Virus record (IMG/VR): IMGVR_UViG_3300032286_001304
Coordinates: 1-64,000 of that record
Origin: a virus
Direction: 5' to 3' (one strand)
DNA length: 64,000 nucleotides
Part shown: positions 26,461 through 62,975 of the stretch, one piece after another
Position numbering within the stretch: the stretch's first letter is position 1
Layout: each line of letters begins with the position of its first letter
Notes under the pieces: generated by a model
Databases searched by the model: none
Told to the model about the DNA's origin: nothing
Seen by the model: the letters and a program-made list of their open reading frames with translations, nothing else
Translations under genes and position numbers: made by a program

Positions 26461-26514
26461 GATTTTTATAAAAAATAAGTCAAAAAGCATAATTTTATGT
26501 GTAATACCATATAT

Positions 26515-27450
26515 ATGAAAAGACCCAAAACGACACAAGATCAGATAAAATTTATTCTAGAAAATTATCCAGATAATGGAGCTATTTTTTGCAGCGAAAA
26601 AACTGGAATTCCTATAAGAAGGGTAAAAAAAATTTGTTATAAAGCTGGAGTAAAATTAACCAAGGAATCTAGGATAAAAATTCAAAGAAAATTACTCAAC
26701 CTTGCGCATAAACAACGAGAAATAAACAAAAATAATTTTGACTTATACGATGTGAATCCAGGTTTATTTATAAATCCAACAACTCCAGAAGTTGCTTATA
26801 TTTTAGGCTTACTATGGGCAGATGGATACATTAGAGAGGTTGGGTCAATTGCGATTGAAGCTGTAAAAAGTGATATAGATATTTTTTATCCTATTTTTTT
26901 AAAAACTGGAAGTTGGCTAATAAATTATAGAAATCGTTCCAACAGAAAACCACAGGGAAGAATTCATAAAAATAATATAATTATTGGAAAATTTTTAATT
27001 GAAAACGATTACACTTCTAAATCCACTGCATCAGCTTGTAAAATTCTTTCTAAAATTCCAGAACATCTTAAACATTATTGGTTTAGAGGGTTATTTGATG
27101 GAGATGGGTGCTTTTATATCAATCAAAAACAAAATCTAATTCAATTATCTATCGCAAGCTCTTTTGAGCAAGATTGGGGGTTTTGTGAAAAAATTATGGA
27201 AAAATTAAATATTAAATATACAATTAAGAGAAGTCAGCAACTACAAAAAGGAAAAATAAATAAATTTTCTGTTATAAGAGTAACAAATAGGAAAGGTATA
27301 AAGATATTTGGAGATTATATTTATAACAATTACGAAAACGACAAAATTGGTTTGCCTAGAAAATATAATAAATTTAAAGAAATAAAACAAATGATAGGGA
27401 CTAGTGATGGTCTGTCAAGTCCAACGAGCGACCGTTTAAATGCATCTTAA
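26515..27450 (+). CDS. Free-standing LAGLIDADG homing endonuclease
   Basis: AYILGLLWADG and YWFRGLFDGDG; antisense to the operon; likely start MKRPK. Confidence 0.9.
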   Translation: MKRPKTTQDQIKFILENYPDNGAIFCSEKTGIPIRRVKKICYKAGVKLTKESRIKIQRKLLNLAHKQREINKNNFDLYDVNPGLFINPTTPEVAYILGLLWADGYIREVGSIAIEAVKSDIDIFYPIFLKTGSWLINYRNRSNRKPQGRIHKNNIIIGKFLIENDYTSKSTASACKILSKIPEHLKHYWFRGLFDGDGCFYINQKQNLIQLSIASSFEQDWGFCEKIMEKLNIKYTIKRSQQLQKGKINKFSVIRVTNRKGIKIFGDYIYNNYENDKIGLPRKYNKFKEIKQMIGTSDGLSSPTSDRLNAS

Positions 27451-28054
27451 CTTCTTTTAAGGAAACCGGCTCACCGAAAGACTCAACCCCTACATCTAAT
27501 CTAAAACCACGACCATTATTTTTATTTGTTAACTCGCAGTTTGAGTGGGTATGACCCGAAAGATGAATTGAATTTTTTGATTGATAATTATGTGAGATTA
27601 TCGGGTAGTGACAAAGCACTAGCATAGTAGAATTAATATTTACTTCTACATATTGTGGAAGAAAAACAATCTTTTTTCCCTTATGAATAAATGATAATGG
27701 GTAAACCTCATAATTTACATCACCAAATTGTTGTTTCAATTGGAAAAAATATGCCTGTCTTTGCCCGGAGGTGTGATTGCCCCAGAGTAGATGTAATTCT
27801 TTAAACTTTAATCTCTCAATTACTTTATAAAAATTTTCACCTGTGCCATCTGAAAATATAAAATCGCCAAGATGAAAAACGATTGATTCTTCATCGCATT
27901 TTGCGTTCCATCTTTCGATTAAAACTCTATTACTTTCCTCTATAGAGTTAAAACCCCTCCTTCCCCAGATAAATTCACGATCATGGGAGTGATGTAAGTC
28001 ACTTAAAAATAAAAACTTAGACTCATCACCGTTAAACTTTAATTCTTTAATCAT
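27401..28054 (-). CDS. Metallophosphoesterase (phage phosphoesterase type)
   Basis: SDLHHSH, HLGDF, GNH, CHYP, GHTH, DVGVE. Confidence 0.9.
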   Translation of the reverse strand: MIKELKFNGDESKFLFLSDLHHSHDREFIWGRRGFNSIEESNRVLIERWNAKCDEESIVFHLGDFIFSDGTGENFYKVIERLKFKELHLLWGNHTSGQRQAYFFQLKQQFGDVNYEVYPLSFIHKGKKIVFLPQYVEVNINSTMLVLCHYPIISHNYQSKNSIHLSGHTHSNCELTNKNNGRGFRLDVGVESFGEPVSLKEVKMHLNGRSLDLTDHH

Positions 28055-28055
28055 T

Positions 28056-28295
28056 TTAATTATTATCTAAGAATCTGATGGCATTACGGATATCCCAAGC
28101 TGAATGTAATGCTTCAAGCGACTTAGTAATAAGATCATCCTTAGTCATCTCAACGGTTTTCCCATGATTAGTTGTGAAGACTTTATATTGACCATGTTCA
28201 TCTTGTTCTACCCAGCCCTCATTATCCATATCCCATCCATCATGGAGAATACGAAAACGAAATACGGTTTTATTTTTATTATTATCCTCGCTCAT
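28056..28295 (-). CDS. Hypothetical protein
   Basis: Likely start MSEDNNK. Confidence 0.65.
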   Translation of the reverse strand: MSEDNNKNKTVFRFRILHDGWDMDNEGWVEQDEHGQYKVFTTNHGKTVEMTKDDLITKSLEALHSAWDIRNAIRFLDNN

Positions 28296-28740
28296 TCCAG
28301 TTAACATAAGTGATTTTGCCACCCTCGTCAAGCGGAATCGTGAAATTTTCGTGTTGGCGTTTGATTACGTCGATTGGAACCTTTCTTGCGCGTTTTTCAT
28401 TATTTAAAATACATTGTTCAAGAGGTGTCTTAAAAACAACCCACTCTTTATTGTAATTAAATGCGGTTGCAAGACGATTCCAAATCAAACGATTCTTTTT
28501 ATTATAATTAGTATTATCAATAATCAAATTATTTCCTAATGACATCAAATATGACGCCATGTGCTCTAAAGTTTGAAATACTTGGTAATTTTTATCTTGA
28601 TTAGACTCATCACCAGTCATTATCAAACGCATCTTATCTGCATTTAGATAAATGTATTGTGGATTATCTTGTAAAAATTTCTTAGCCCAAGTGCTTTTAC
28701 CTGCACCAGAAATACCCACTAAAAGAATTATATTAGACAT
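28282..28740 (-). CDS. Polynucleotide kinase-like protein, kinase domain only (AAA_33)
   Basis: GISGAGKSTWA, ADKMR, IIDNTN, lid NEKRARKVP. Confidence 0.85.
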   Translation of the reverse strand: MSNIILLVGISGAGKSTWAKKFLQDNPQYIYLNADKMRLIMTGDESNQDKNYQVFQTLEHMASYLMSLGNNLIIDNTNYNKKNRLIWNRLATAFNYNKEWVVFKTPLEQCILNNEKRARKVPIDVIKRQHENFTIPLDEGGKITYVNWNERG

Positions 28741-28799
28741 AGATTTTTAGTTTGAATTTATAAATAATGATTTTTAGTGTAATACAATATACATCCATC

Positions 28800-29795
28800 A
28801 TGAAAAAATTAAGCAAAAATATAAAAGCTGAAGAAATCGAATACCTAAAAAGTAATTATGGAAAAATATTTGGGAGCGAAATTTGCAAACAATTAAAATG
28901 GTCTTCATCAAAACTTGAAAGGGCTACGAGAGCACTTGGGCTAAAGAGTAAGTTGCAAAAAAGAAAAAATAATGCAAACATAGAACTAATTTCAAAATTA
29001 GAAGATCCAGAAATACTTTACATCTTGGGGTATATTTGGGCTGACGGATATATACAGAGAAAAAAGAAAATTAAAAATAATAAAAAAATAGATAACGATT
29101 TTTTATTTCAAATGGCAAAACTAACAATTGTTAGCGAAGATTTTAAAGATATAGAAAATTATTTTAGTAAATTTGGAAAATATTCAATAAAGCACGAAAA
29201 AAGAGGAGATTTTAAGCCGACTTCTACTTGGTTTCTATGCGATACTACGTTTTGTGAATGGTTATGTAAATTCAATTATCATGAAAAATCATTAAAGGGG
29301 CCAGAAAAAATATTAAATGCTATCCCAGAAAATCTTCGCCATTACTGGTGGAGAGGATATTTTGATGGTGATGGTCATATTATATTGGCTACCAATTTTA
29401 GATCTTCCGTTTCGATTTCTGCTAATTTTGATTATAACTGGAGTTTTTTAAATTTGTTCTTGAATGGTATTGATTTTAAAATTAATAAAATAACAAATAA
29501 AAAAGGTCACAAACACTCTATAGCTTCTTGTAATTCTTTTAAATCAAAAAAATTTTTAGACTATATTTACCAAAATGTAGAAAAAGATAATATAGGACTT
29601 AAAAGAAAACGAGAAAGGTATTTTTTGTCTAAGCAATATATTTTTAAAGATAAAAAAAATAAAAATAAATATGTATATTATGTAGAAAGGAGAAATAAAT
29701 GGTCACTTTCTATTAAAAAACTTGGTGTCCAAATTTTATTTGAAACAGAAGCAGAGGCCATAAAGAAAAGAGACGAAATTATAAATAATCTTTAA
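28800..29795 (+). CDS. Free-standing LAGLIDADG homing endonuclease with AP2-like C-terminus
   Basis: YILGYIWADG, YWWRGYFDGDG; tail KYVYY...KW...FETEAEAIKKR; ORF track starts at 28767. Confidence 0.9.
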   Translation: MKKLSKNIKAEEIEYLKSNYGKIFGSEICKQLKWSSSKLERATRALGLKSKLQKRKNNANIELISKLEDPEILYILGYIWADGYIQRKKKIKNNKKIDNDFLFQMAKLTIVSEDFKDIENYFSKFGKYSIKHEKRGDFKPTSTWFLCDTTFCEWLCKFNYHEKSLKGPEKILNAIPENLRHYWWRGYFDGDGHIILATNFRSSVSISANFDYNWSFLNLFLNGIDFKINKITNKKGHKHSIASCNSFKSKKFLDYIYQNVEKDNIGLKRKRERYFLSKQYIFKDKKNKNKYVYYVERRNKWSLSIKKLGVQILFETEAEAIKKRDEIINNL

Positions 29796-30747
29796 GTTTG
29801 ACATAAGACGAAAGAAGATCTTGATCTACCATAGAAAATAATCTTTCATAAATTGGACGAAAAACTCTTCCATCAATATCTGGTTCATTGATTAACTCAG
29901 AAATTTGTCTATGAATTTCTCTATCCAAATCACCTTCAATTTTAAATCCGCGTAGACCAATTTCTGCATAATCATAACCATCACTCCAGTCATTTCTATT
30001 TTGTTGTAAATAATGCGCGAGATACAAATATTTATCTTTTGAAAGAATCGCTTCAGTCATCTCATGAACATTAGGCATTCCATTTGGAAAAGTCAAGTCA
30101 TATTTCTTAATTAATTCAAGAAATAACTTAGTCTTTTCCGCTTCTTTCTTTTTCTTTTCCTCTTCTAATTCCTTTGCTCGTTCAGCCGCTTGACGCTTTT
30201 GCACCTGCTCTTCAACCTTTCTTTTGAACCCTGACCAGTCGGGCAGAGAAGGAGCGTAAACGCGACATTTTGATTTTAATTCGGTGACAAATTCGCAATC
30301 CATCCAATCAGGAATGGTTTTCCGCGATTTAGGATTTTTACAACGAGTTTCAATCCCCATTAGTTTGATCAAATCAATTAAACCATTGAACGAGGCAAGA
30401 TTATTCTTTGCGATTTCTAAATTTTCAGCATAGATCGCCTTATCTTTTTCCCAAATTTCATCAATAAGTTCAATTTTATCCACAAATTGATATGAGTCAT
30501 AAACTCCTTGCGATGCTTCGCGTAACTTTTCTTCTTTACGAATTCCCCAAATCGAGGTAGATTCATATTGGTATTCAAATTGGTAGGAGTAATAAAGATA
30601 AGATTTATATGGAATAATTTTCCAATCTTTTTGCGCTGCCGCTTTATATTTTTCCACTTCGTTAGCGGATTCAGTTATCGCGTCAAGCAAATAAGAAACT
30701 GCTAACTTTCCCTTATAGGAAAGTTTTTCATCATCGTATTGTTTCAT
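29779..30747 (-). CDS. Hypothetical protein
   Basis: 322 aa ORF with coiled-coil centre. Confidence 0.8.
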   Translation of the reverse strand: MKQYDDEKLSYKGKLAVSYLLDAITESANEVEKYKAAAQKDWKIIPYKSYLYYSYQFEYQYESTSIWGIRKEEKLREASQGVYDSYQFVDKIELIDEIWEKDKAIYAENLEIAKNNLASFNGLIDLIKLMGIETRCKNPKSRKTIPDWMDCEFVTELKSKCRVYAPSLPDWSGFKRKVEEQVQKRQAAERAKELEEEKKKKEAEKTKLFLELIKKYDLTFPNGMPNVHEMTEAILSKDKYLYLAHYLQQNRNDWSDGYDYAEIGLRGFKIEGDLDREIHRQISELINEPDIDGRVFRPIYERLFSMVDQDLLSSYVKLKDYL

Positions 30748-30750
30748 TTT

Positions 30751-31590
30751 TTATTTATTTTGTTCCGCTACTGATTCTTGCGTTTCAATATCCACTTCCC
30801 CTCTATCGTGTTCGGCAGATTCTTGGCTTAAAAAGGCCAGACTTTTTAATTTATATACATCAGCATAATCATTAAATTTACGGACTACAACACCTTCTCT
30901 TGGAACTTTATTGACACATAATGGACAATCCATTTCTGTATATTTCGCAATTAAATGATTTAGCAGTTCTTCACGCCAAATATCTAAATCCCTATCATCC
31001 TTTGATTCAAGCCACTTAGTAGGCGCAACTAAATCTTTCGCATAACCAATATAATGATATGGAACTGTCTTTAGATTGTATTTCTTGCAATAAAGAGCAA
31101 TTTGCTGTTCGGTAAATTCAAAAACTTCACCCGATGGATTTGTATAGGTTATGCGATAAATAGCATAGTCATGTTGACCAGTTTTTGTGCCATAATCAAA
31201 ATCCTTTTGAATCCACTTGCAATTAGGAAGTTGCCCATAAATCTCTACATAAAAACTCATTCCATCTTTTAGGAATGGATTAAGTTCTTTGGCAACCAAG
31301 CCCCAAATATCTACATCATAGAAAGATTCTGATTTTTTATCAGCATAAGCGTTTTTAATTACTTTACGTGAACTCCATAGATAATCATAATTAGTATCTA
31401 CGATATTCACACCTAATTTCTTTAGAATCTTCTCGTAAAAATTCAATGATTTTTTACATAGAACTTTAGAGAAAACCCCGCTAGTATTATGAATTAGAAT
31501 TCCGTTAGCATAGAAATTACCAGTTGAACTTACGGTTAAGTCATAGCGATCATTTCGCTTATCCAACTTTTTAATTGATTTTATTTTCAT
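30751..31590 (-). CDS. C-intein (35 aa) fused to the C-terminal half of an RNA ligase
   Basis: MKIKSIKK...YDLTV...NFYANGILIHN|TSG; ligase motifs SRK, VEIYG, EGVVVR, KLKS. Confidence 0.92.
   Translation of the reverse strand: MKIKSIKKLDKRNDRYDLTVSSTGNFYANGILIHNTSGVFSKVLCKKSLNFYEKILKKLGVNIVDTNYDYLWSSRKVIKNAYADKKSESFYDVDIWGLVAKELNPFLKDGMSFYVEIYGQLPNCKWIQKDFDYGTKTGQHDYAIYRITYTNPSGEVFEFTEQQIALYCKKYNLKTVPYHYIGYAKDLVAPTKWLESKDDRDLDIWREELLNHLIAKYTEMDCPLCVNKVPREGVVVRKFNDYADVYKLKSLAFLSQESAEHDRGEVDIETQESVAEQNK
31486..31590 (-). mobile_element. Split intein, C-terminal part (IntC)
   Basis: Blocks F and G, terminal His-Asn, +1 Thr. Confidence 0.93.
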
Positions 31591-32557
31591 AAATTGATTT
31601 TATTTTTTCATATAGAAGTAAGAATTTATCTTCTCTGTTTAGTAGATGTAACTCTCTTTCCCATATCGTGACAACACTAAACCCTTTTTCTCTAGCTAAG
31701 TCAATTTTATTTTTATCTTTTTCCCAGATTTCTTTTGCAGTCTTGCGTGAAACTGGCATAATATCATTTTCTTTGTAAAGTTCAGGATCAGCGTGCCAAA
31801 TTGTTCCATTTATTTCGACTAAAACCTTTGAATTAGAGAGATAAATATCAAAAACATATCTTCCCATTTTAAATTGAGAAGAAAATGGAACTTGATTATC
31901 CACTAAGATTTCTTGTATATCTTTTTCCAAAGAACTTTCATATAGTTGAGTATTATTTTTTAATGACTGCTCGCTCCTTATTGTTTTTAATAGCCATTCC
32001 TCTTTTTCTTCTATTGTTTTGGATGACCATGCTATTTTTGAATCTATTGATCTTTTTTCTCTTATGGAGCATCCGAAATTCTTTAAAAATACAGACTCCA
32101 TTTTTTCAAGAAAATTCTTTATTTTAAATGGATTATCGACCCCATATTTCAAAATATAGGTTTTTTTTCTTTTTTCATTGAACTCTTTTACCTTAAAAGT
32201 TTGATCAACCCCATATCTTATAAGATTCGTTTTTTTTGATTTTTTAGCTGCCAAAACACATGCTTCACTATGCGTTCTTGGAATTATCCCAAAATAGTCT
32301 ATTAAAAATTTGGTAATTTTGTATGGAATTCCATATTTTTCTTTAAAATCCGGCAAACTATATAGTAGCGTTGAATAAGCATAATGAAAAATTTCTTTTG
32401 TCGCTATCTCTTTGAATGTCTCTAAATAAATCAAATATCTTAAAGACTTGGTATCCATCCCTCTTTTCTTTCTCTCCCATCTTAGATATGAAGCGAGTTG
32501 ATTGTTTTCATTGATAATTGTTTTTTTAAAGGGGCAAATATATTTTTGAGTATCCAT
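31571..32557 (-). CDS. Vsr/DUF559-like homing endonuclease between the intein halves
   Basis: SSLE...FDIY...VEINGTIWHAD...KD...VVTIWE; RYGVDQ/KYGVDNPF repeats; likely start MDTQK. Confidence 0.88.
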   Translation of the reverse strand: MDTQKYICPFKKTIINENNQLASYLRWERKKRGMDTKSLRYLIYLETFKEIATKEIFHYAYSTLLYSLPDFKEKYGIPYKITKFLIDYFGIIPRTHSEACVLAAKKSKKTNLIRYGVDQTFKVKEFNEKRKKTYILKYGVDNPFKIKNFLEKMESVFLKNFGCSIREKRSIDSKIAWSSKTIEEKEEWLLKTIRSEQSLKNNTQLYESSLEKDIQEILVDNQVPFSSQFKMGRYVFDIYLSNSKVLVEINGTIWHADPELYKENDIMPVSRKTAKEIWEKDKNKIDLAREKGFSVVTIWERELHLLNREDKFLLLYEKIKSIYENKIN

Positions 32558-32594
32558 ATACAATGGATTACACAAAAAATTCTAAAATTATACT

Positions 32595-32906
32595 TTATTC
32601 TGAATTTTTGCTGATAAGAACTTCGTCCCCATTTTTCAGAAGATCGGCTCTTCTGTAACATTTTAAATCCTTCATCCAAACTGGGTTATTACCCGTTATC
32701 TCTATCTTCCGCCCATCCTCTAACTCCATCTCATACCAATCATCACTATCTTTATAAAAATAATGATCTGTAATTTTGGCCCATACCTCTTTCTCAAGTT
32801 CTACGTCATAAGCCAAAACATTTCCAAATAATTTATTATCAACTACTTGGCCTATCGTGATATCCCCGTATTCAAGGGTTTTTATAATCGTTTCCTTATC
32901 CACACA
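32595..32906 (-). mobile_element. Split intein, N-terminal part (IntN, 103 aa)
   Basis: Cys1, block B region LEDGRKIEITGNNPVW, ending ADLLKNGDEVL. Confidence 0.92.
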
Positions 32907-33545
32907 ACCATGAAGTTTTTCAGAAATTGAGATAAAATCGTCTGGATGTAATGAAGATAAATTCTTTTTTAGCGGAGCCGTATCAATATGTAGTCTAAAT
33001 TGATTATCTACAAGTTTAGACTCTCTCTTTACTTTTCCTTTTTTGTTTTTAGAATTATTTTCTATATTTTGGGCGCGACGTAATGCATCATAATTGATAT
33101 ATTTATCGCAAATAAATGTATCTCCATAATGACTAAATTCAGTTCCTACCTCAAAATCTCCTATTGAAGCCTTTATTTTCTTGGAGGATAACCAATCAAC
33201 AATGGATTGAATTGGAACAATATAACCTTCAGAAAAGATTCCGCGAAGTTTGGTTGTTTTAACTCTTGATACGGATGGGAAAAATCCTTTTATGCTTTTA
33301 TCCGCATTTAATTCGGATTTGGAATAAGAATTAGACCAACTTAGATATTCCGAGTTTAAACGAGATTCCAGAGGAAAATAAATATAAATATCATCGGTTT
33401 TTGCATTTAGTCCTGTGATTACGTTCTGCCCATCAATAAAGGCAATTTGCAAACTGTCAGCGGATGGATGCTTACGCAATTCACCCAACTTAACTACTTT
33501 AGCAAGATAGTTTTTATGTTCGGTTTGAATAGATAATTTGCTCAT
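32595..33545 (-). CDS. N-terminal half of a DRB0094/Rnl5-like RNA ligase fused to an N-intein
   Basis: OB-like N-terminus (HPSADSL...KLRGIFSEG), motif I EKLHG, then CVDKETII intein block A. Confidence 0.92.
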   Translation of the reverse strand: MSKLSIQTEHKNYLAKVVKLGELRKHPSADSLQIAFIDGQNVITGLNAKTDDIYIYFPLESRLNSEYLSWSNSYSKSELNADKSIKGFFPSVSRVKTTKLRGIFSEGYIVPIQSIVDWLSSKKIKASIGDFEVGTEFSHYGDTFICDKYINYDALRRAQNIENNSKNKKGKVKRESKLVDNQFRLHIDTAPLKKNLSSLHPDDFISISEKLHGCVDKETIIKTLEYGDITIGQVVDNKLFGNVLAYDVELEKEVWAKITDHYFYKDSDDWYEMELEDGRKIEITGNNPVWMKDLKCYRRADLLKNGDEVLISKNSE

Positions 33546-60546: not shown

Positions 60547-60575
60547 TATGTACCTGATTAATCAGGTAAAATCAA
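60547..60575 (-). promoter_or_regulatory. thyX promoter with a perfect 18 bp palindrome
   Basis: TTGATT-17-TACATA containing TACCTGATTAATCAGGTA (60551-60568). Confidence 0.6.
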
Positions 60576-61633
60576 GGATAAAGTTCAAAAACATTGGGTC
60601 GAACTGGAGTTTGACCCGATTCAAGCTCGTAGTCATATTGTGCCATAATTTCCATGTGTTTTTTGAAAGGCATCCGCTGTGGATTCCATCCAATCAGATT
60701 TTGTGCCTTTTTGCTACTACCAACCAGTTTCAAAACTTCATTTGGGCGCTTGAGAGAATTGTCAATTTGAATATATTTTTTCCAGTCCAAATTAAAATAC
60801 CCAAATGAATAATCAAGAAATTGCTCCCCATGATAACAAACATCTGAACTTAAAACAACATCCTCTGGTTTGTCTAGTTGCAGTAGATTAAACATGCCTT
60901 CCACGCAAAAATCCGCATAAGTTTCATCTCGCCAATGGTCTATGTTACCGCAAATAATTTTATCCGTTTTGCCTAATGCAATTTTAGCCGCATAACTAGA
61001 GCACTTCCGGGCGAAAAACGATGGATGTCTATATATATTACTATGATTGAAAGTGAATGCTGTTACGCAAAACATACCATAAGTTTGCCGGAAATACTTA
61101 ACCCAATTATAGGCAAGATTTTTTGCAATCGAGTATGGGGAGCGAAATTCTAGGGGGGAATCCTCATTGAAGGGGCAGTTTCGGGGATCGCCGCCAAACA
61201 TTTCACTAGTAGACGCTTGAAAAAATTTAACCTTTGGACAAAATTCGTAGCAAGAATCTAAGAGATAAAACACCGATACACCCGTGGCGAAAAGAGTGTA
61301 AGTTTCGTTTTTGAAGGAATCTCCTACATGACTTTGGGCCGCAAGGGAATATAGTTCGTCAGGTTCGCCGTAATTTTTGACAATTTCCCTAATCCCATTA
61401 CGAACAGAAGAAGCGTCCGTAATATCCATGAATTGGAAGGATAGTTTTGATTGGGGGTATTTTGATAAATCTACAGAAAATAGGGAGGAAATTTCCTCTA
61501 TAATTTGCTTAGTGTTCCTGCGATATGTAAGAATCACATGATAATTTTTTGATAGCAGTAGGTGGGTGATGGTTTTTGAATCCATTCCGGTCCCCGTTAC
61601 CACTGCTAACTTAGATTTATTTTGAATATTCAT
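60572..61633 (-). CDS. gmd: GDP-mannose 4,6-dehydratase
   Basis: TGTGMD, LAAQSHVGDSF, QASTSEMFG, RSPYSIAK, FNHS, RPNEV. Confidence 0.93.
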   Translation of the reverse strand: MNIQNKSKLAVVTGTGMDSKTITHLLLSKNYHVILTYRRNTKQIIEEISSLFSVDLSKYPQSKLSFQFMDITDASSVRNGIREIVKNYGEPDELYSLAAQSHVGDSFKNETYTLFATGVSVFYLLDSCYEFCPKVKFFQASTSEMFGGDPRNCPFNEDSPLEFRSPYSIAKNLAYNWVKYFRQTYGMFCVTAFTFNHSNIYRHPSFFARKCSSYAAKIALGKTDKIICGNIDHWRDETYADFCVEGMFNLLQLDKPEDVVLSSDVCYHGEQFLDYSFGYFNLDWKKYIQIDNSLKRPNEVLKLVGSSKKAQNLIGWNPQRMPFKKHMEIMAQYDYELESGQTPVRPNVFELYP

Positions 61634-61635
61634 GA

Positions 61636-62901
61636 TTAATTTTTAAATTCTTTCTTTTTTAATGTCCACCCATTATACTCTTTTATCTGGTCCCTTATCA
61701 AGAGAAAAAGTTTTTTCTTCGGAATTAGCCCAATCATAAATTTCCATAGCTCGCTGGGGCTTTCGGCAGAAATCTCTTCGTTAGTATTTATATTTAAAAG
61801 AGATATATAACTATATTGTTTTCTTGGATGACTTTTTAAAACGCTTATTAAATCAAATCTTTTATGATTTTTTAGTCGCCCATTAACGATTCTTCTAATT
61901 GATGGATCGCCCATCTCAAGTATAAATTGAGATAAATTTGTTATAGTTATTTCTATTTTATTTTTCTTGTCATATAAAACATATACTCCACATGGTTTTG
62001 TTTTATTCTTTAAACAAACAATATCCTCGTCCGTGATACTCGCGAGTCTCCACCCTTTTCGCTCTACAGCCTTACCCCGTATCAAAAAAGTTACATCTTC
62101 GCGCAATAATGGAGGATGAAGGCGAGCAAACTCCGTTGAACTTCCTCCATATTTGTAAATTTTGCCATCTGGTCCCTTTAGCTCCATATCTTTTAGCTCT
62201 TGGCGCTTAAACCATTTTGAAATATCCATACCTTCTTTGATATAATCACCACATGGAGTATTTGTCTTAAATCCATTAATCATTGCAGATAAATAATCTG
62301 GATTTAATTTTTTTTCTAAGGCGAATTCAGATATGTTTTTAAAATAAATAACTTCTTTTGTTTTATAATTAATTAATTTATATTCTTTGTTTGGATTTTT
62401 AATTAATTCTAACGGAGTTCCCTTTAGCGCGAAACCCTGAGATGAAATATTTTGTTTAGAAATAACAACTTTTAGACTTGGGTAAGACAACCCTCTTTCT
62501 TTGCAAAAATCTTTTAGATGGAAAATAATATATTCTTTTCCTTTGTAATCAACAAGATGATGCTCTTGGGATACTGACTCGGATAATTTTCTTTTTGAAA
62601 TCTCCGAAAACTCAGGAGAATCTCCACCAGTTGTAAAATTATAGCCATTGGGAACAAAAGTGTTATGTTTTGCTATATGAAATTTTTCTAATCTTTTCAG
62701 TTCTTCTTTTGATTGTACATTTGACTCAAGCAGTTCAACTTTAAAGTTTTTAGGACCGTATAAATTAACGGCATTTGACAGATATTGATTATGATGCTTT
62801 CTATACCAATTTCCATGATACCTTTCTCTTATATTTTTCTTTATACTCAAACCGATATAAGAATGTCCATTTATTTTGTTGGTAATTTTATAGATAATCA
62901 T
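61636..62901 (-). CDS. GIY-YIG homing endonuclease with repeated C-terminal DNA-binding modules
   Basis: MIIYKITNKINGHSYIG...NGYNFTTGG; likely start 62901. Confidence 0.9.
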   Translation of the reverse strand: MIIYKITNKINGHSYIGLSIKKNIRERYHGNWYRKHHNQYLSNAVNLYGPKNFKVELLESNVQSKEELKRLEKFHIAKHNTFVPNGYNFTTGGDSPEFSEISKRKLSESVSQEHHLVDYKGKEYIIFHLKDFCKERGLSYPSLKVVISKQNISSQGFALKGTPLELIKNPNKEYKLINYKTKEVIYFKNISEFALEKKLNPDYLSAMINGFKTNTPCGDYIKEGMDISKWFKRQELKDMELKGPDGKIYKYGGSSTEFARLHPPLLREDVTFLIRGKAVERKGWRLASITDEDIVCLKNKTKPCGVYVLYDKKNKIEITITNLSQFILEMGDPSIRRIVNGRLKNHKRFDLISVLKSHPRKQYSYISLLNINTNEEISAESPSELWKFMIGLIPKKKLFLLIRDQIKEYNGWTLKKKEFKN

Positions 62902-62975
62902 TGTTCGCCCTTTATCAAAATTACACCTGAGACGAACACTTTTATACACAAAAAGAATCCATATATACACTTAAA

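Follow-up and report, generated by a model that had tools for sequence, protein, structure and literature searches.

How might a phage make a working RNA ligase from a gene whose two parts lie in different reading frames, on either side of an endonuclease gene? The question is raised by a 64,000-nt stretch of viral DNA (positions 1–64,000 of IMG/VR record IMGVR_UViG_3300032286_001304, hereafter the window), in which three minus-strand open reading frames (ORFs) follow one another: 32595–33545(−) of 316 aa, 31571–32575(−) of 334 aa, and 30751–31590(−) of 279 aa. An initial annotation of this DNA had described them as a fractured RNA ligase gene. Our analysis leads to the same answer: very probably, a mobile 1,421-bp cassette, composed of an N-terminal intein half (IntN), a homing endonuclease gene and a C-terminal intein half (IntC), is lodged in the RNA ligase gene of a T4-like phage directly after the glycine of catalytic motif I, and the ligase would be restored by protein trans-splicing. 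This reading is carried by an empty-site allele in a close relative, many independent loci of the same design, matches to curated intein models, and purifying selection on both intein halves.

Architecture of the divided ligase gene

Translation of the ORFs bears out both halves as first described. The N piece (32595–33545(−)) begins with a 213-aa N-extein (32907–33545(−)), which comprises an OB domain of the PHA02142 type and the start of the nucleotidyltransferase domain and ends in motif I, SEK(210)LHG. The sequence continues across this boundary as ...SISEKLHG/CVDKET..., with 103 residues of IntN (32595–32906(−)) past the glycine, the first of them a cysteine, and then a TAA stop. The C piece (30751–31590(−)) opens with MKIKSIKKLDKRNDRYDLTVSSTGNFYANGILIHN/TSGVF. 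The 35 residues that end in GILIHN and precede TSGVF constitute IntC (31486–31590(−)), and the Thr-Ser-Gly start belongs to a C-extein of 244 aa plus stop (30751–31485(−)), which contains motifs III (E..G), IV (EG) and V (KLK).

Between the two pieces lies the ORF of a free-standing EDxHD/Vsr-like homing endonuclease, separated from the IntN stop by a 37-nt spacer (32558–32594(−)) and overlapping the start of the C piece by 20 nt. Measured from the first base of IntN to the last base of IntC, the cassette spans 1,421 bp. The locus shows the hallmarks of a fractured gene: a collinear join of two ORFs, an IntN followed by a stop, an IntC followed by a nucleophile, and an endonuclease in its own frame.

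As a metagenome-derived contig, the record could in principle contain an assembly or sequencing artefact, and the layout might then represent an error-ridden cis intein or an intron that is spliced out of the transcript. The three reading frames all differ (starts at 33545, 32557 and 31590, equal to 2, 1 and 0 modulo 3), and these frames together with the TAA stop would take several errors to produce, which upholds the earlier argument that a single error is insufficient. The same architecture also occurs in many independent contigs (at least 10 in IMG/VR), and 139 of the best 150 IntN matches, defined below, have the split form, ending within 8 residues past IntN. A group I or group II intron was rejected, as no Rfam intron match was found in the region. 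Given the independent loci and the lack of an Rfam intron match, sequencing error, misassembly and RNA splicing are very unlikely.

An uninterrupted allele delimits the cassette

A syntenic relative, L030 (contig Ga0181347_1000036, which bears the uninterrupted ligase P0002), carries the ligase gene without the insert. DNA identity is 83–92% on either side; the alignment stops at window position 32908 and restarts at 31479. The ligase gene of L030 and the joined exteins are 1,374 nt each and correspond codon for codon, with 90.1% identity. The window therefore differs from this close relative by exactly the 1,421-bp cassette. At the protein level, the joined exteins amount to 457 aa and can be aligned gap-free, through the junction, with the 457-aa P0002 (93% identity over the N-extein), in agreement with the length that had been predicted for the spliced product.

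Around the junction, 7 of the 30 surrounding bases differ from L030, mostly synonymously, and the 60-nt bin at this position has an identity of 0.83 compared with 0.90 overall, a difference that is statistically not distinct. These substitutions are suggestive of target-site divergence or of co-conversion.

The comparison with L030 also bears on the possibility that the endonuclease cassette destroyed the ligase and that the remaining pieces are decaying. Homing endonuclease genes do disrupt genes, and L030 has lost the neighboring polynucleotide kinase (Pnk) gene by deletion, which implies that some lineages can dispense with the module. Decay is at odds, however, with the intact state of every ORF in the locus and with the conservation of motifs I, III, IV and V of the ligase. 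The codon differences between the exteins and L030 comprise 81 synonymous and 35 non-synonymous changes, and in other fractured loci the proportion of differing non-synonymous sites (pN) in the exteins is far below that of synonymous sites (pS). We therefore consider a dead gene highly improbable.

The intein halves resemble a class 1 split intein

Both intein halves exceed the curated cut-offs of the NCBIfam intein models (TIGR01445 intein_Nterm, 28.8 versus 24.5; TIGR01443 intein_Cterm, 27.2 versus 15.6), and among solved structures IntN comes closest to the Ssp DnaE and NrdJ-1 inteins (E 2e-4 to 1e-2). Across 33 homologs of IntN, C1, T284, N287, P288, V289 and W290 are invariant, as are R15, Y16, D17, L18, T19, N25, F26, H34 and N35 of IntC across eight loci. 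These positions include features expected of a class 1 intein: Cys1, the block F aspartate (D17, within RYDLTV..NFYAN), the block G pair H34-N35 (within GILIHN) and, as the first extein residue, Thr+1 (T36), all of which are invariant. The block B motif TxxH of class 1 inteins appears here as TGNN, with the threonine kept and the histidine replaced by asparagine. The two halves carry opposite net charges, −9 for IntN and +4 for IntC. Such charge complementarity is a feature of fast split inteins.

Between two other fractured loci, L005 and L012, pN is 0.115 for IntN and 0.071 for IntC, compared with 0.175–0.243 for the exteins and 0.168 for the endonuclease. Because synonymous sites are saturated (pS 0.69–0.86 overall and 0.75–0.86 for the intein halves), selection on the intein halves is given as pN and pS only and not as dN/dS. 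Purifying selection acts strongly on IntN and IntC alike. In a metagenomic homolog of 737 aa (P0124), the two halves are fused into a contiguous mini-intein at the same site, which also has TGNN in block B.

We further modeled the association of the two halves, using residues 204–316 of the N piece together with residues 1–46 of the C piece. The pair scored 0.89 compared with 0.00 for the best of three controls, with at least 96% of contacts agreeing between runs and a predicted local distance difference test score (pLDDT) of at least 79 for the partner. Of 80 solved complexes, 58 attained a mark of 0.89, as did 2 of 110 mismatched pairs; these counts give a rough calibration, as custom alignments were used. 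Since split-intein complexes have already been solved, this result reflects likeness to them and perhaps memory. From their sequences, IntN and IntC should form one Hint domain, which would be expected to splice.

Block B without histidine

The block B histidine has been described as the most conserved residue of inteins and as essential in many of them (PMC6333167). In the window, block B reads I-T-G-N-N-P-V-W, and HMMER alignment to Ssp DnaE (TSDH) and NrdJ-1 (TPDH) places the second asparagine in the histidine column. This asparagine shows no variation among the 36 IntN sequences that were aligned after a first search, nor among loci L002–L012. For a broader view, an IntN profile was compared with 1.84 billion representative sequences (clusters at 50% identity), which gave 3,275 matches at E ≤0.001, 706 at ≤1e-10 and 55 at ≤1e-30. 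Among the best 150 of the 3,275 matches, the block B residue is histidine in 92, asparagine in 50, aspartate in 4, lysine in 1 and glutamate in 1, and is unreadable in 2. Within this set, 47 of the 50 asparagine forms are placed after the K-x-H-G of RNA ligases.

The loss of the histidine lends some weight to a different account, in which the intein halves no longer splice and act as a non-covalent clasp that merely holds the ligase pieces together. The TGNN motif itself would fit such a role, and the binding model backs association only, not chemistry. However, all other splicing residues are invariant among sequences that are only 35–55% identical, and a mere clasp would not need them. The contiguous TGNN mini-intein of P0124, at the same site, also argues against a clasp. 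In addition, without splicing a 138-aa domain would stay three residues away from the catalytic lysine and would probably block the active site. On balance we regard a clasp as unlikely.

The ligase active site is divided between two genes

The PHROG 968 'RNA ligase' profile (398 positions) is matched by the N half over positions 4–194 and by the C half over positions 206–396. PF21189, the PHA02142 OB domain, scores above its cut-off on residues 14–112 of the N piece. PF09414 reaches 20.6 on the C piece alone, below its cut-off of 27, and is listed for the uninterrupted P0002. In 34 uninterrupted homologs K210, H212 and G213 are invariant, and in the C piece T36, S37, E116, G119, E232, G233, K247 and K249 are invariant across eight loci (C-piece numbering), with the same columns invariant in the uninterrupted homologs. 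Motif I (K210-x-H-G) is thus located on the N piece, and motifs III (E116/G119), IV (E232-G233) and V (K247-x-K249) on the C piece. As judged from these motifs, the predicted ligase active site is divided between two genes.

The N-extein alone gave no meaningful match in the PDB, and a profile query was needed. With a profile of the 34 uninterrupted homologs, the nucleotidyltransferase core matched T4 Rnl2 (PDB: 2HVQ, E 5e-6), and the N-terminal OB domain weakly matched the Naegleria ligase NgrRnl (PDB: 5COT, E 0.02). The initial annotation had called the enzyme DRB0094/Rnl5-like. A weak likeness of the OB domain to DraRnl and NgrRnl favors this label, but the core is nearest to T4 Rnl2 and PF09414, and the TIGR02306 RNA_lig_DRB0094 equivalog model gives 22–23 bits, over the N-terminal OB domain only, versus a cut-off of 151. 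With a score so far below the cut-off, 'Rnl5-like' describes domain order at best and not membership. By its domains, the enzyme is a member of the phage ligase family that combines the PHA02142 OB domain with PF09414, and ligase activity is predicted.

The endonuclease and the interior of the cassette

The ORF between the ligase pieces had been annotated as a Vsr-like or DUF559 endonuclease, an assignment that our searches confirm and extend. It matches DUF7487 (40.2 bits versus a cut-off of 27), DUF559 (22.6 versus 20.6), PHROG 3339 'homing endonuclease' and, weakly, Vsr. An N-terminal DUF7487 region with repeated YGV..N.F motifs is followed by a C-terminal nuclease of the Vsr fold. Translation most likely begins at the ATG at 32557, giving a protein of 328 aa (31571–32557(−)). 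We prefer this start over the TTG at 32575, which would give 334 aa, on account of the protein-database gene call and the fit to the homolog alignment.

The endonuclease sequence alone gave no meaningful match in the PDB, and here too a profile query was required. A profile built from 15 members of the family matched E. coli Vsr (PDB: 1CW0, E 1.2e-4) and the nuclease domain of I-Bth0305I (PDB: 3R3P, E 1.7e-4). In this sequence-profile alignment D237, E248, H255 and D281 fall at the positions that in I-Bth0305I correspond to D196, the family glutamate, H213 and D222, with residue equivalences taken from PMC3239194. Homologs at 46–60% identity have intact ORFs. We considered whether Thr252, an aspartate in most relatives, might indicate a decayed active site, and rejected this idea, as the closest homologs share the threonine and I-Bth0305I has a valine.

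A hairpin, UCCAU-uguau-AUGGA, within 32540–32575(−) contains the endonuclease ATG (fold z-score −2.2; 2 of 200 shuffles fold equally well). We take it as a hint; hairpins upstream of endonuclease genes in fractured loci were noted by Dassa et al. (PMC2677866). A perfect 15-nt direct repeat (31573–31587 and 31592–31606, minus strand, 19 nt apart) spans the 3′ end of the endonuclease gene and the start of IntC, each copy encoding KIKSI in the frame of its own ORF. Loss of one 19-nt period would be expected to fuse the endonuclease in frame to IntC. Inside the cassette, promoter and terminator predictions on the coding strand did not rise above chance at the positions of interest.

Fractured ligases in metagenomes

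The order N-extein, IntN, stop, endonuclease, and IntC joined to C-extein recurs in IMG/VR loci L002–L012 and L021, with the endonuclease on the opposite strand in L011 and with L008 ending before it. These loci were found with an alignment query; a single N-piece protein searched against viral contigs retrieved no related locus, and blastn with the entire region found no counterpart among GenBank phages. Among the closest homologs, 35 of the 119 classifiable clusters (90% identity) consist of an N-extein, an IntN of 98–103 aa and a stop. The split RNA-ligase allele is common in metagenomes.

In a tree of the N-exteins (119 rows), the presence of the intein takes at least seven gains or losses, six of which are forced by well-supported branches. 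The window is nested among the intein-less alleles P0002, P0003, P0006 and P0008, with Shimodaira–Hasegawa-like approximate likelihood ratio test (SH-aLRT) values of 96–99. Such patchy presence among close alleles fits homing, or homing combined with precise loss.

In some of these phages, stop codons are probably recoded. The endonuclease ORFs of two loci (L002:6403–6930 and L003:6707–7069) contain three to four in-frame TGA codons at conserved tryptophan columns and no TGG, and that of a third (L009:1484–2335) contains three in-frame TAG codons. All three loci terminate IntN with TAA.

Members of this IntN/IntC family, in most cases accompanied by a Vsr-like endonuclease of the same family, were also found in IMG/VR in the motif I region of other ligases. 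Hosts include ATP-dependent DNA ligases (L017, L019, L022 and L027; PF01068 and PF14743) and RNA ligases of the T4 Rnl1 type (L018, L028 and L029; PF09511), in both of which the insertion is at or beside motif I (KxDG), and other PF09414 RNA ligases with nearby insertion points (L015/L016, L026 and L020). L020 is fractured twice, with two intein pairs in tandem. Block B reads TGNH in the DNA-ligase, Rnl1-type and other PF09414 loci of this lineage. A more distant RNA ligase (L014:4866–6689) contains a split intein of the same family whose halves are only about 100 nt apart and enclose no endonuclease; block B is the canonical TGNH, and the +1 residue is Ser.

These distributions invite a broader proposal, towards which we lean only slightly: that splicing proceeds without the block B histidine in a large natural clade of split inteins (TGNN, Gly−1, Thr+1), and that one lineage of inteins and EDxHD endonucleases specializes on the catalytic-lysine motif across the ATP-dependent ligase superfamily. 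Should the TGNN inteins be active, the first acyl shift would depend in them on a compensatory mechanism that is widespread. That the histidine is consistently missing here is of mechanistic interest; the literature treats this residue as near universal.

Proposed mechanism

We propose that the two ligase pieces are translated separately and that each would be inactive by itself. IntN, which is acidic, and IntC, which is basic, would associate into one Hint fold and proceed through class 1 chemistry, in which an N–S acyl shift at Cys1, here with asparagine in place of the block B histidine, would be followed by attack of Thr+1 and cyclization of the terminal asparagine. The exteins would thereby be joined as ...EKLHG-TSGVF... 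to give the 457-aa ligase, which would probably seal broken RNA together with the neighboring Pnk-like kinase and phosphoesterase. The endonuclease, in turn, would probably cut intein-less alleles of co-infecting relatives near the KxHG/T codons, allowing the cassette to be copied in.

Several observations count against this trans-splicing model. With the block B histidine replaced by asparagine, splicing may be slow, conditional or absent. The steric compensation described for natural inteins that lack this histidine, which involves a bulky −1 residue (PMC6333167), is inapplicable here, since the −1 residue is glycine. Neither the endonuclease gene nor the C piece has a conspicuous Shine-Dalgarno or promoter signal, and the record is a fragment, with a CheckV completeness of 63%.

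Genomic context

The record is linear, 97,940 bp long, with a GC content of 30.6%. Its gene content is T4-like and includes rIIA, a gp43-type polymerase, a DnaB-like helicase, an exonuclease, a UvsX-like recombinase and NrdA/B. No other inteins were found in the record. Downstream of the ligase lies an RNA end-healing pair, composed of a Pnk-like kinase (28282–28740(−); PHROG 505 'polynucleotide kinase', E 4.5e-28; PF13671) and a metallophosphoesterase (27401–28054(−); PHROG 547 'phosphoesterase'; PF12850). By analogy to T4 Pnk and Rnl, the ligase, kinase and phosphoesterase may have an RNA heal-and-seal role.

Four endonuclease-like genes are present in the 64-kb window. Two of them are LAGLIDADG-like free-standing endonuclease genes, 26497–27450(+) and 28767–29795(+) (PHROG 4645, 30% mutual identity), which lie on the opposite strand within the RNA-repair run; the stretch that bears them has a low GC content of 23–29%. 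In L030, a 2.3-kb deletion (window 28342–30647 compared with L030:7374–7502) removes a LAGLIDADG gene and most of the Pnk-like kinase, and fuses the first 27 codons of ORF 29779–30747 to the last 17 codons of the kinase. Further away, a homing-endonuclease-like gene (61636–62970(−); PHROG 7168/314, 444 aa, no Pfam match) is flanked by an IMPDH/GMP-reductase-like gene (63227–64183) and a GDP-mannose dehydratase gene (60572–61633).

Comparison with known systems

The closest parallels in organization are the fractured genes described in 2009 by Dassa et al. (PMC2677866). They share with this locus the order of host N part with IntN, free-standing endonuclease ORF, and IntC with host C part, as well as reading frames that overlap or are offset, a hairpin close to where the endonuclease gene begins, a mainly phage origin and a host enzyme that acts on nucleic acids. 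In half of those loci the endonuclease is Vsr-like. Their cases include gp41-1, gp41-8, NrdJ-1, IMPDH-1, NrdA-2, DnaE, DNA ligase and terminase. No RNA ligase is among their eight host types, and the present locus differs in its RNA-ligase host, in the asparagine that replaces the block B histidine, and in Thr+1. The single DNA-ligase locus of Dassa et al. may belong to the same wider lineage as the motif I DNA-ligase inteins reported here. A search of the full-text literature, in a library that is incomplete and can offer only absence of evidence, found no description of a split intein in an RNA ligase. The locus joins the fractured genes of the Dassa type, with an RNA-ligase host that appears undescribed in searchable papers.

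The initial annotation had suggested that the host site, too, may be new. The site itself is not: gp158 of Mycobacterium phage Phoebus (MK524529.1) is a homologous ligase with a cis intein at the identical point, after the K-L-H-G of motif I, and cis inteins of RNA ligases have been listed as new for actinophages (bioRxiv 10.1101/2025.01.02.630785). What stands of the suggestion is the split, endonuclease-bearing form, for which no description was found in the literature searched. The Phoebus intein differs in being contiguous and about 355 aa long, with an in-frame domain of the LAGLIDADG type, the canonical TPDH in block B, Ser+1 and no free-standing endonuclease.

The endonuclease can be compared with I-Bth0305I, the EDxHD prototype (PMC3239194; PDB: 3R3P), with which it shares the Vsr-fold C-terminal nuclease, the catalytic columns and an N-terminal region of DNA-binding repeats, and whose family occurs in fractured genes. 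I-Bth0305I differs in being intron-encoded, in recA, and the two resemble each other only in profile comparisons (E 1.7e-4). In the window, the selfish element interrupts an RNA-repair enzyme at its active site, and its patchiness among near-identical alleles fits ongoing homing.

With respect to block B, the nearest precedent is a very small natural group without the histidine, the Tko CDC21-1 orthologs, for which a compensatory mechanism is presumed (PMC6333167). These orthologs have a bulky residue, Leu, at −1, whereas the inteins described here have Gly at −1 and an asparagine substitute, are split, and form a large group (50 of the best 150 matches).

Among split inteins with solved structures, NrdJ-1 and Ssp/Npu DnaE (PDB: 8UBS, 1ZD7 and 4KL5) have a similar split point, dividing about 100 aa from 35 aa, and likewise combine an acidic IntN with a basic IntC. 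Their similarity to the present intein is weak (E ~1e-4), and they have TPDH or TSDH in place of TGNN and Cys or Ser instead of Thr at +1. The gp41-1 and NrdJ-1 inteins, both from fractured phage genes, are widely used for protein ligation. The pair described here offers a new host context (Gly−1, Thr+1), and the deep and diverse family to which it belongs could supply orthogonal pairs.

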